NCBI GenBank assembly: GCA_963665845.2
Contig: OY762492.1
Span: 2,336,001 to 2,400,000 of the forward strand
Length of the DNA: 64,000 bases
Direction: 5' to 3'
From: Candidatus Poribacteria bacterium
Lineage (GTDB): Bacteria; Poribacteria; WGA-4E; GCA-2687025
Positions within the stretch are counted from its first letter, which is position 1. Each line of letters starts with the position of its first letter. Of this stretch, positions 35,770 through 42,228 are shown one piece after another. The notes below the pieces were generated by a model that was not told where the DNA came from, did no database searches, and saw only the letters and a list, made by a program, of their open reading frames with translations. Position numbers and translations under genes: made by a program.

Positions 35770-35901
35770 TTGACATGCGTTTGGCGTCTTGGTATGGTAT
35801 GTTGTTGCGGGCGGGGCGTTTTCGTTCCGCTAGGCAAGCGCGGCATGATTCAACGCGCAACGTGAAAAATGGTTGACATGCGCCGAGCGTTTTGTTATTG
35901 T
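35770..35901 (+). promoter_or_regulatory. Tandem sigma70-type promoters
   Basis: TTGACA-17-TATGGT (35770-35798) and TTGACA-17-TATTGT (35873-35901), both within GGTTGACATGCG. Confidence 0.75.
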
Positions 35902-36013
35902 AAACTTGGTTTGCGGAGGATGCGGGCGTTTCAACGCGTTGCTTGACGCAATCATGAAATTTTGAACGAGCGAGGATACGCTCTTGAGAATCAAAACTTT
36001 AAGGACAGAACTT

Positions 36014-39000
36014 ATGAGAAAGACCGCTAAAGCGGCGCTTCCATGCCTGGGTCGGTGGACATTGGCGGCGTCGCTTGCATTGATAGGATTGGGGCTGATC
36101 GGGTGCGGCACAACGCCGTTCTCCGAGCTAGGCCCGCAGGAGCCGCTGTTGCCGGCAATTGAGGGGGAGTCGAAGTTCTCCGACCGCTTTGAGCTGGAAG
36201 AAATTCCTCATTTTTTCCATGATCTGTTCGGAAAAGAGCTGCTGGAGGGGCATGAGGTTCATCACTACGGGGAAGTGAAGAAGTTCGACAACACAGGCAA
36301 CTTGAACCTCGGTTTCAGCGGACAGTGGGAGACGCTCCGATTTGTTGTGGAGCTGGACCGCGAGGTTCTGACGCATGACACCTTTAGGGGCAGGCACGCG
36401 GAAGCGGCGATCGGAGATCATCTCCGCATTCTGCCGGAGACGCTCTTTCCCGCCGGGTACATCATCCGGAAAACGGAATTTGACGGGCAGCGGTTCGACA
36501 TCTCGTTCTCTCATGAGCGTCATCTGTTCACGCTTCTCAACACGCGCATGTCCAACACCATCTACAATATCCCTCTTGGTTTCCAGACGCTCAACGGCGC
36601 CGCCGGTCGACGAACCTCCACCGAGGACGTTGCCTTTCTCGCCAACTCCAGAATCATCGGTTTCCGAGCGCAGGGGCTGATCGGGGACATCTTCCGCGTC
36701 GGCGCGACGTATATAAACGTGCGCCAGGAGTTTCATCAGCGGACGCACAACCCGCTCTTCGGCTCCGTGCCGAACACGCCGCCGCAGGTCATCGTTGTCA
36801 CTTTCCGCGACGACTCGCCTGAAGACGGGCGCGTCGGAGCCGCCTTCCAGTCGATGGATGTCGTCATACGGTACCGAGAGGAATTGTATGACGTCGAAGT
36901 CATCACGGAGGACCCGAACACGGGCGAACCGCTGGAAGAACCGGTTGTCATCCGCGCGCCGCAGGAGTCCGAGGAGCAGACGCTCACATGGCAGGTCTTC
37001 TCCGACGATATGCGGGACGGCAATCTGACGGGAGATGTGCTGAACGGCGGATCGCCCGACCCGACCGTGACGACGGAGCTTCCCAGTTCCGACCCGCGCA
37101 TTGTTCGCAATGTCGGCGCGGACAACGCCGATTATCCGTACCTGGGCGACTGGCGGGTTGCAAACGGGTTTGACGCTTTTCATTACGCGCTGGATTTGAC
37201 CAATCTGCCGGATGCGGCTGCCAACGAGCTGGGAAGCTCGCTTTTGAACCCGGCGGTTGTCATCAGCGTTGAGTTCCAGAATATCAAGGTGGCGGGCGAC
37301 TACAACATCGTCATGAGCGGATACAGCCCTGGCAACGTCGGCGATGAAGACGGCGATCAGTTGCTCAATATGAACGGAAGCGGTCTCATCGTGATGCCGT
37401 ATCGCGACGTGATACAGGCGCCTGGAAACGTCGGTCAGGAGCAGGGTCAAGACCTGGACGTGTCCGATCCGAACGGGTGGAATCCGAAAACGATCGCGTC
37501 GCTGCAGTACGGCGCGCCGCGCTCCGCTGTCTTGGCGGGCGTGGACCTTGAAGGGACGATCGGCAATGTGCTGATTCGGGCGCAGTATTCGGTCAACAAC
37601 AAATACAAAGCGTATCCGACCGTCGACGAAGAACGCATCGATATTCTTCTTCTGCCGCAGGATTCAGGGATATCGAACGCGACCGTCGGAGACGCCGCCG
37701 ACTTCAAATACGACGAGGCGTCGGAGGGGAGAACCTTTTCCGCCAACAACGGCGCGGAGTTCAAATTCACGCCCGGCGGCGACAACCATGACTCCGCCGA
37801 GGTCGCCTGGTTCATCCAGCTTGAACACCGGCTTGGACGCATCCTGTTCAAAGAAGCGTTCTACCACATCGACCCAGGCTACACGACCAACTACCAGGGC
37901 TGGGGAAACAATGTGGACCGCGACGAGGTGTACGGCAACAACCCAGGCCCGTGGCGCGAAGCGAAAGACGAACCTGGTCCAGGAACGGAAGGTCCGGGCG
38001 TGGCGGCGGGGAACGGCTTCAATGCGGACATCTACCGCTTCGTTGAAGACGACGACGACCGCGACAGCTTTCCCGACAGCATCGACTTTGACGGAGTCCT
38101 TCCGCAAGCGGACGACCGCGACCAGAACGGCATTCTGGACTATCAGGAAGATTTCCTCATCTTCGACGCCGACCCGCCCATCTTTGACGACCTGGTCGAC
38201 CATGATAACAACGGCATCATCGACTCTCTCGAAGACGACTATGAGCCGGATTATGAGTACGGGATCGACCGGCGCGGCTACCATATTGAGGTGGCGTGGG
38301 ACATTTTTGAGAACATGACGACCACTTTCGGCTGGCTGAACGAGTCGGAAGTGTCCAGCGCGCGGCGCAACAACTCGCGCTATCTCCACTTCGATTTTCA
38401 GCGCGACATTGCCGAGCTCGGCACTTTCCGCCTGCAAGACCGTCTCCGCGTTGTGGACGACGACATCCCCGACTACTCCATCGCGCTGATCCCTGGAGCG
38501 CTTGGGGAGGCGCAGATAGAGGACCAGTTGGACTTCTACAACGCGACGGAAAACACGACGACGCTGCAGTTCCTCTACAACGCGATCAACAACCTGACGC
38601 TTGAGGGCAAGTATCTCTTCACGCTTGGGCGCCAGTCGCCGCCGTCGGATGAACGGCTGATCTTCCCGGACGACCCGGACACGCCCGACATTGATGAGCG
38701 CATCGACCTGATGGTGCCGCAGACGCAGGTGGATGTCGGCGGCGGGCAGAGAGATTACCCGTTCTATCCGGACCCGAATCTGATTTTCGACATCGACAAC
38801 TGGCAGGGGCGTCGATACGGGATTCAGAGCTACTGGGATGAAGACGGCAACATCATCACTGAAGAGGGCAAGACCCTCAATCAGCAGCTGCTCATTTTCC
38901 GCGCGCAGTATGAGATTCCGCTCAAGGAGATTGGCGGTCTGCAGAGCATCGTTGAGAGCATCAGCGAAGACATCGTCATCACGCCGGTGTATAAGTACAT

Positions 39001-41320: not shown

Positions 41321-41767
41321 ATGTATGATGAAAATCAAACCCAAGCTACCGCCCGCAAATCGCGGCGGGAGCCTGCAGTGGACATGACGCCGATGATCGA
41401 TTGCGTGTTTCTGTTGATCATCTTTTTCATGCTGGCGACCACCTTCTCGCCGCTGCCTGGCATCCAGGTCAAACTGCCGCCCCCGTCCAATGCGCCGACG
41501 CCGCCGGAGCAGAAAAACTTCATCCTGGTGATATCGAACCCAGAAGGGGGCGCATCGGAAGGCATCATGCTACTGAACGATAGTGGAGTGAGCATGAGCG
41601 ACCTGTCGGTCAGCTTTATGGGCGGCACCGAGGAGCAAAAAGAGACGCTCATCATCCGCTCCGGACGGCGCGTGAAGCATGAGCAGATCGTGACCGTGAT
41701 GGACAAGGCGAAACGCGCCGGCATCAAAAAAATCGGATTTGCAATGGTTGCAAGCTCCTTATATTGA
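41321..41767 (+). CDS. exbD: ExbD/TolR biopolymer transport protein
   Basis: DMTPMIDCVFLLIIFFM; VMDKAKRAGIKKIGF. Confidence 0.92.
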   Translation: MYDENQTQATARKSRREPAVDMTPMIDCVFLLIIFFMLATTFSPLPGIQVKLPPPSNAPTPPEQKNFILVISNPEGGASEGIMLLNDSGVSMSDLSVSFMGGTEEQKETLIIRSGRRVKHEQIVTVMDKAKRAGIKKIGFAMVASSLY

Positions 41768-41820
41768 CAGGCGCGCCTCGTCCACCGCATCCAACAGCCC
41801 AACTTTGAAAGGGTTGCGCC

Positions 41821-42228
41821 GTGAGATTAAAAAAACCGAGGGAGAAACAGCCTCCCAAGCTGGTCATGGAGCCGCTGGTTGACTGCGTCTTCCTTCTGCT
41901 CATCTTCTTTATGGTGGCGAACATTCTGAAGCCCACCTTGCCGTTCACCGTTGAACTGCCGGATTCCAAGTCCCGCGAGGAGTATGTCCGCAAAAAGTTC
42001 AACGTGTACATCAACGCGAACGGGCAGATGTCCGTTGACGACCAGGCGATGCAGGACTATGACGCTCTGGAAAAATACCTGCTGACGCGCGCGAACGAAA
42101 TCGAGGTGCTGATGATCCACGCCGACAAGAACACGAAGCATGGAGATGTGATCGACGCGATGGAACGCGCCAAACGCGCCACGCTCGACAATATCGCCTT
42201 TGTGCTGTCGGACGAGGAGATCGAGTAG
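41821..42228 (+). CDS. exbD: Second ExbD/TolR protein
   Basis: PLVDCVFLLLIFFMV; IHADKNTKHGDVIDAMERAK. Confidence 0.9.
   Translation: MRLKKPREKQPPKLVMEPLVDCVFLLLIFFMVANILKPTLPFTVELPDSKSREEYVRKKFNVYINANGQMSVDDQAMQDYDALEKYLLTRANEIEVLMIHADKNTKHGDVIDAMERAKRATLDNIAFVLSDEEIE

Follow-up and report, generated by a model that had tools for sequence, protein, structure and literature searches.

Among the described systems closest to the locus reported here are the SHLS-anchored transducers with a non-TonB von Willebrand factor A (vWA) head that are encoded beside tetratricopeptide repeat (TPR)-tolQ-tolR-tolR genes, as presented in the main text of Williams-Jones et al. (2025, PMC12204202). [quoted passage not shown] Here we analysed a stretch of 64,000 nucleotides from a Candidatus Poribacteria genome (the window; contig OY762492.1, positions 2,336,001 to 2,400,000), in which the gene of a giant putative outer-membrane protein is followed by genes for an ExbB-ExbD-ExbD motor. 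An earlier note, made from the letters of the window, had read this as a TonB-less motor operon headed by a calcium-binding outer-membrane protein, and the features it listed (twin promoters, a lipobox, Ca-type motifs, a hairpin, a mini-paralog gene, exbB and two exbD genes) were all recovered by checks of open reading frames, Pfam domains and folding. Judged from sequence, the barrel family tied to a Ton/Tol-type motor is real, conserved and apparently undescribed: the literature searched (supplements and most subscription journals lay outside its scope) held no description of this barrel family or module and mentioned DUF4159, a domain of importance below, only in a Pfam database paper. In the main text of PMC12204202 the terms DUF4159, Poribacteria and Ignavibacter have 0 occurrences, and its supplements may list related loci.

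Our best reading, which we hold tentatively, is that the barrel and the motor form what has stayed linked of the core of an energised trans-envelope machine that acts on surface proteins and whose other parts lie elsewhere on the chromosome. It is based on the presence of the barrel in 151/151 Poribacteria genomes, its linkage to the motor in 20/20 loci, the partner genes found beside it in other phyla, the homologues of these partners in the source genome and the published precedents.

The barrel gene (36014-39478, on the forward strand like all features of this locus) encodes 1154 aa and, by its open reading frame, lipobox and predicted structure, is assigned to an outer-membrane beta-barrel lipoprotein of an unnamed family. 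The lipobox LIGC occupies residues 28-31, with G30-C31 invariant in 65/65 sequences, the N-terminal 50 residues are conserved within the family, and the protein ends in YIRAMTGF, the last residue being Phe. Neither Pfam nor NCBIfam gave a match at E<=0.1, hence neither a plug nor the barrel of a TonB-dependent transporter (TBDT): the plug model PF07715 (~150 aa), which finds 10 plugs elsewhere in the same genome, and PF00593, the 22-stranded barrel, both failed to match. Searching PDB sequences with an 85-sequence family profile returned nothing below E 0.39. AlphaFold predicted a large barrel for the window protein (pLDDT 66, pTM 0.67) and for a Zixibacteria homologue modelled with the 85-sequence alignment (pLDDT 82, pTM 0.82). 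From the DSSP listings of the two models we counted ~24 alternating strands, an approximate figure obtained without coordinates that leans on the Zixibacteria homologue, as strand 2 is poorly resolved in the model of the window protein. The first strand begins ~40-50 residues past the signal peptide (from ~residue 80), and the short mature segment of ~50 residues before it leaves no space for a TBDT plug. Strands 7 and 8 are predicted to be separated by a beta-sandwich insert (~residues 259-498), strands 11 and 12 by an acidic loop (37874-38263, ~residues 621-750) with the Ca-binding-type motifs DDDDRD, DRDQNG and DHDNNG at residues 679, 701 and 729, inside a stretch with 28% Asp+Glu; Asp-rich motifs are kept also in distant homologues. 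From the models we infer that sandwich and loop lie on the long-loop side of the barrel and face the cell exterior. Fold searches with both models returned generic barrels only (best TM score 0.26; best Z 12.9 and 13.6, with rmsd 9-12 A over ~250 residues), which does not by itself establish a new fold; the ESM Atlas gave unnamed clusters at 0.96 and, as a lead only, DUF6029 at 0.88-0.89. We therefore reject a TBDT, given the missing plug and PF00593 matches, the ~24 strands and the ~50 residues before the barrel, and describe the protein as a predicted plug-less, ~24-stranded outer-membrane barrel. The earlier note's statement that it is no recognisable plug receptor thus holds, structure prediction and Foldseek having yielded no standard 22-stranded TBDT fold. 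Its wider term 'new receptor class' fares less well, as import is only one possibility and the neighbours in other phyla point more to the handling of T9SS-exported surface proteins.

The motor genes follow closely. ExbB, the ExbB/TolQ-type channel subunit (40114-41250; likely start at the GTG at 40198 behind GGAGG), matches PF01618 at E 1.9e-31, and the two ExbD/TolR proteins (41321-41767 and 41821-42228), which are 28% identical to each other, match PF02472 at E 2.5e-23 and 6e-22. The threonine motifs of ExbB, GLLGT (294) and LYTT (328), are intact, and both ExbDs have the transmembrane aspartate (Asp27 and Asp21, respectively), so that the conserved Thr ring motifs of the MotA/ExbB channel and the ExbD aspartate expected of a Ton motor are all present. 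ExbB further bears a signal peptide and a periplasmic CarboxypepD_reg domain, a point absent from the earlier note; by BLAST this domain occurs in 19/20 Poribacteria ExbBs. The mini-paralog gene (39569-40117) is a truncated duplicate of the N-terminal half of exbB (59% identity over 118 aa), whose product has a signal peptide, the CarboxypepD_reg domain and one transmembrane helix; among 21 primary loci it was found only in this genus. Local duplications are frequent in the barrel-motor operon: one genome also has a third, decayed exbD (L029:7660-8423), and in another part of the barrel N-terminus is duplicated over 122 aa (L028:5453-5821).

Named homologues of the barrel are hypothetical proteins of Candidatus Poribacteria, 42-89% identical (best 120 of 334 matches). 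The gene was matched in 151/151 Poribacteria genomes, in one of which (G004) only distant paralogs were matched (E 2e-18). For linkage we hand-picked 21 primary loci across 8 families, 20 of which extend far enough to be assessed. In 20/20 of these, exbB-exbD lies directly downstream of the barrel, and 19/20 have at least two intact exbD genes, the second exbD being split by a frameshift in the remaining one (L036, about 11150-11750). Even the divergent family f8 keeps the order barrel-TPR-exbB-exbD-exbD (L045), with a 1478-aa TPR gene between barrel and exbB, and its truncated locus L046 shows barrel-TPR; the best match of this TPR protein in the source genome is C1:866117 (34% over 1150 aa).

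A 778-aa paralog of the barrel in the source genome (C1:1507000-1509336, +) led to distant relatives, which come at least from records titled Ignavibacteria, Kryptonia, Bacteroidota, Zixibacteria, Gemmatimonadota, Latescibacterota and Handelsmanbacteria, and also from KSB1. The Poribacteria and other-phyla barrels align with an hhalign probability of 100 (E 5e-71, 760 columns). We kept 78 of 585 such loci, many of which end short of full flanks. Their recurrent neighbours are a tailed protein (73 loci), a protein of the DUF4159 cluster (62), a TPR protein (57), a PorV/PorQ/PorP-like barrel (56), ExbB (30) and DUF5683 (25); where at least 6 kb were available on both sides, ExbB was present in 19/23 loci. 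The predicted conservation of the barrel-exbBD linkage was thus borne out both within Poribacteria and beyond. The tailed protein has a T9SS type-B-like tail, and the giant TPR protein of these loci has a hydrophobic N-terminus. One type of DUF4159 protein combines a membrane helix of the TonB-like S/A-x3-H kind with a long linker, stands directly after exbD in several loci and, by a strict pattern, occurs in 22/30 ExbB loci; its head scores as DUF4159 only, with no vWA match. In Latescibacterota, four lipoproteins beside barrels (L110:16049-17302, L115:4189-5430, L118:15615-16826 and L120:16154-17407) gave weak TonB_C-like matches at E 0.006-0.04 with a 3-sequence profile, and no TonB_C was matched in the 21 Poribacteria loci. 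The cross-phylum recurrence of the barrel-motor pairing with secretion-related parts likely marks an unstudied energy-driven cell-surface machine.

Homologues of these parts are scattered over the source genome: the TPR protein at C1:866117, the tailed protein at C1:292354, a PorV-like protein at C1:1504562 and anchored DUF4159 proteins at C1:1612066 and C1:3321233, the latter two aligning with the operonic ones at 23-24%. The 778-aa barrel paralog lies one inserted gene downstream of the PorV-like gene; the inserted gene resembles a DNA methyltransferase. In two other Poribacteria, G002 and G004, the tailed protein comes first, directly followed by the PorV-like protein, the barrel paralog and a 1900-aa protein. 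As the parts are unlinked here, their joint action in this genome is deduced from other genomes.

The description 'TonB-less' applies to the operon, which has no TonB gene (for a Ton motor such a neighbour is common but not obligatory), but not to the genome (~90% complete), where a genome-wide search found three TonB_C proteins elsewhere, together with ten plug-bearing TBDTs. The ExbB-ExbD-ExbD genes of the operon are the only intact ExbBD set of the genome; besides them we found one orphan ExbB without exbD (C1:2619042-2619797, -) and a third ExbD match, the ExbD periplasmic domain that ends a 550-aa protein (C1:3385132-3386784, -) downstream of an anti-sigma-like gene. Across 26 Poribacteria genomes there are 2-3 ExbD matches each, mostly an adjacent pair. 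Because the sole intact set coexists with three TonBs and ten TBDTs, the operon motor probably also serves as the general Ton motor. A dedicated motor is disfavoured, since both here and in most of the 26 genomes the linked pair is essentially the sole intact ExbD set, and the notion of a motor without a transducer found no support. Sharing with the ordinary Ton system also weakens the earlier argument that the motor needs a non-canonical partner.

With regard to type IX secretion, a SprA-like match was obtained in 26/26 Poribacteria (1 above the cut-off, the rest below) and, above the cut-off, in 38/38 barrel-bearing genomes of other phyla. GldM was matched in 0/64 barrel-bearing genomes with a profile that is insensitive and misses some SprA-positive Bacteroidota, and GldL/GldM were not matched in the source genome by a search with the same known misses. 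The source genome has a divergent 2205-aa SprA-like gene (C1:935094-941711, -) just upstream of an mraW/ftsI/mur cell-division cluster, ~10 PorV-like proteins and ~54 proteins with FlgD/T9SS type A tails. The barrel is not a SprA homologue (hhalign probability 1.6 against a 16-sequence SprA alignment), and we reject that assignment. As a separate observation, 79 open reading frames of the source genome end in a short W-x-x-L-K-type tail, 67 of them in the fuller form V-x-P-x-G-K...W..LK, and an S8 peptidase in the window (33003-34343) ends in a similar tail; together with the FlgD/T9SS type A tail this makes two candidate export signals in one genome.

Upstream of the barrel gene there are two sigma70-type promoter-like sites at 35770-35798 (TTGACA-17-TG-TATGGT) and 35873-35901 (TTGACA-17-TG-TATTGT), each scoring 10/12. 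They are the sole tandem pair (<200 bp apart) among the 79 TTGACA-17-TAnnnT sites on contig C1; region-wide, the number of promoter-like sites is not above chance (4 versus 2.6 +/- 1.7 in shuffles). A site of at least 10/12 precedes the barrel in 11/20 relatives. Directly 3' of the barrel stop codon lies a strong GC hairpin without a U tract (39487-39531; -44.8 kcal/mol, z -5.1), and 0/200 shuffles folded equally well. Hairpins occupy the same place in 18/19 relatives with unrelated sequences, so that the element is conserved in position; it is likely an mRNA-stabilising or attenuating element. A second hairpin (41262-41298; z -4.5) separates exbB from the first exbD. The barrel family is transcribed in sponge-type metatranscriptomes of relatives, and two studies provide RNA-library contigs of related strains that span portions of the barrel and motor genes, contigs that give no measure of expression level, gene ranking or a single transcript.

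If barrel and motor are the core of a surface machine, protons passing through ExbB and the ExbD1/ExbD2 pair (a 5:2 motor) would power the TonB-like DUF4159 arm. With the TPR rod as its guide, this arm would pull on the barrel from the periplasmic side, and a surface protein exported by the T9SS and held at the barrel would thereby be placed, moved or released, much as Agl-Glt/Nfs does for adhesins and spore-coat polymer. The three ordinary TonBs and ten TBDTs would be served by this motor as well. A dedicated role of the module on co-encoded cargo, apart from a general T9SS motor, may be envisaged. In a more general and somewhat less secure form, we suggest that a hitherto undescribed surface machine powered by ExbB-ExbD-ExbD could be core to Poribacteria and common to Ignavibacteria, Kryptonia, Zixibacteria, Latescibacterota, Gemmatimonadota and KSB1. 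In it, a TonB-like arm with a DUF4159 tip and a giant TPR rod would energise a new class of 24-stranded barrels without a plug, so that proteins exported by type IX secretion would receive force from a Ton-type source independent of GldLM; such a Ton/T9SS hybrid may be a relic of how T9SS cargo was energised early on.

Several observations weigh against a surface machine. The window keeps only barrel and motor, with TPR protein, tailed protein, PorV-like gene and DUF4159 arm unlinked. Conservation of the motor can be explained without the barrel, since there is no second ExbBD set. The nearest ExbBs to the Poribacteria ExbB core (37%) belong to the exbB-exbD-exbD-pstS type, which is typical of general Ton operons. 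ExbB is absent from 4/23 full-flank loci of other phyla, several Latescibacterota DUF4159 arms lack the His, and in Poribacteria second barrel copies had no exbBD nearby in 3/3 cases checked. The kin genomes compared are not independent, an upstream co-polymerase gene (15/21) is commoner at Poribacteria primary loci than T9SS genes, and the hairpin after the barrel stop in 18/19 relatives suggests that more barrel than motor is produced.

The main rival is one that we regard as doubtful though by no means negligible: the barrel would be an abundant passive or structural porin, distantly SlpA-like, that is merely co-transcribed with a general Ton motor and not mechanically coupled to it. The sole ExbBD set indeed has three TonBs and ten TBDTs to serve, strong promoters and a hairpin flank the barrel gene, the barrel has no plug to pull and unlinked paralogs exist. 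SlpA ranked first in Foldseek for both models, and family members match SlpA_C (PF21620) at 24-35 bits (cut-off 35). However, the structural matches are poor (TM 0.13-0.25), the homologues cover just ~85-110 of the 656 SlpA_C positions, i.e. about four strands, and the window protein itself gave no SlpA_C match; nor did Pfam match an SLH domain in it, a lipobox standing in its place. Moreover, the linkage of barrel and motor with a TPR protein and a TonB-like arm persists across at least five phyla, beyond what loose co-expression usually produces. That the barrel is instead an energised importer, with a T9SS-exported carbohydrate-binding protein as SusD-like lid and the DUF4159 arm or TonB opening the channel by pulling a short conserved N-terminal segment, seems unlikely to us. 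The conserved N-terminal 50 residues would supply such a segment, the tailed protein has weak matches to F5/8-type carbohydrate-binding domains, CBM9 genes lie upstream of 10/122 barrel copies, and the barrels are multiplied in tandem in Latescibacterota, as is often so for nutrient receptors. Yet a plug domain is missing, the single copy in Ignavibacteria loci and the one universal primary copy in Poribacteria look housekeeping-like, and no glycoside hydrolase or ABC uptake genes were present among the annotated recurrent neighbours in other phyla (18 of the top 40 clusters scanned).

Surface polysaccharide enters the discussion through the Poribacteria loci, where a Wzz/GNVR polysaccharide co-polymerase gene, often accompanied by DUF5683 and SnoaL-like lipoprotein genes, lies at most 2.5 kb upstream in 15/21 primary loci; this window lacks the arrangement. 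In family f8 a gene for outer-membrane polysaccharide export (OPX) precedes the co-polymerase, and in family f6 a giant SLBB OPX gene follows exbD. The barrel could accordingly be pictured as the outer-membrane exit of a polymer handled by an OPX and polysaccharide co-polymerase (PCP) pair and spread by the motor as in Agl-Nfs, for which PMC3858216 offers a precedent. We consider this improbable: within the clusters scanned, annotation of the recurrent neighbours in the 78 other-phyla loci gave no OPX/PCP genes, in the source genome these genes are unlinked, and many relatives have a separate promoter-like site between PCP and barrel. Slightly less can be said for the module as the T9SS motor of lineages lacking GldL/GldM, to which we give the lowest probability. 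The SprA-like gene in 64/64 and GldM in 0/64 of the barrel-bearing genomes would fit, as would the distribution in 121 Bacteroidota genomes, where SprA was found in 96, GldM in 30 and the barrel in 5, with no overlap between barrel and GldM carriers. But the GldM search misses genomes with SprA above 2,500 bits, and zero overlap of 5 and 30 in 121 is expected by chance about 1 in 4 times; the barrel, too, is unrelated to SprA. As ~61 of the 121 genomes have SprA without a GldM match or a barrel, a universal T9SS motor is disfavoured.

Some further observations concern the surroundings of the locus and the genome at large. Just 5' of the promoters, the window encodes a lipoprotein-like TPR + PD40 (TolB-like) protein (34340-35629, +), which is found in only 4/21 compared loci and hence is not a conserved part of the locus. 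A family of ~500-aa acidic proteins with a single transmembrane segment, akin by eye, is repeated at 29273-30880 (-) of the window and at C1:1030918, 2764250 and 3118967; the window copy has no Pfam match. One TBDT (C1:857095-859530, -; plug and barrel) starts with a TonB-type S-x3-H helix and linker and has no plain signal peptide, so that it is possibly a TonB-anchor/receptor fusion. Tandem MotA-like and OmpA/MotB-like genes with an HNH-like gene (C1:1315900-1326750, -) form an array that resembles Zorya defence loci.

Should the surface machine be real, the 5:2 proton-motor family would gain both a new class of outer-membrane client and a new transducer head, and the handling of T9SS-tailed proteins in phyla with SprA and PorV in which no GldLM was found would have an explanation open to test. 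The fuller module of culturable Ignavibacteria makes the idea testable. Even as a passive porin, the barrel would be a good structural target, being universal in the sampled Poribacteria, without a sequence relative in Pfam, NCBIfam or PDB, and transcribed in relatives.

Compared with the Ton system, the locus shares the ExbB/ExbD families with intact Thr and Asp motifs, and its motor probably serves the TonBs and TBDTs of the genome; it differs in having no operon TonB, two unlike ExbDs, a CarboxypepD_reg domain on ExbB and a plug-less barrel of another family. Deinococcus SlpA (PF21620; PDB 8ae1, 7zgx) is likewise a large plug-less outer-membrane barrel and the top Foldseek rank for both models, whereas the window protein reaches a TM score of at most 0.25 with it, has ~24 predicted strands instead of the 30 of SlpA, lacks an SLH domain and is linked to a motor. 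With T9SS type B secretion and its PorP/SprF-like carriers there is common ground in that a type-B-like tailed gene adjoins a PorV/PorP-like barrel in most non-Poribacteria loci and SprA is found in all tested carriers of the barrel; the systems of PMC9143113 and PMC12635249 use GldLM/GldKN, whereas here ExbBD is linked, the barrel is no SprA homologue and the window has no cargo or carrier genes. Agl-Glt/Nfs likewise has a motor with a single TolQ-like subunit and two TolR-like ones, along with TPR proteins, a transducer and outer-membrane barrels that act on surface material, but its GltG has a TonB domain and its Glt barrels measure 209-275 aa, as opposed to a DUF4159 arm and a barrel of 850-1150 aa here, a distinction drawn from published descriptions. 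There is also a resemblance in gene content to the vWA transducers in the main text of PMC12204202: relatives of this locus have the TPR protein, the tolQ-like gene, the pair of unlike tolR-like genes and the SHLS-type anchor, i.e. a TonB-type helix and linker with a non-TonB head, while in the source genome the TPR protein and the anchored proteins are unlinked. What sets the present module apart from them is the DUF4159 head, the giant barrel, the PorV/PorP-like barrel and the T9SS-tailed cargo.

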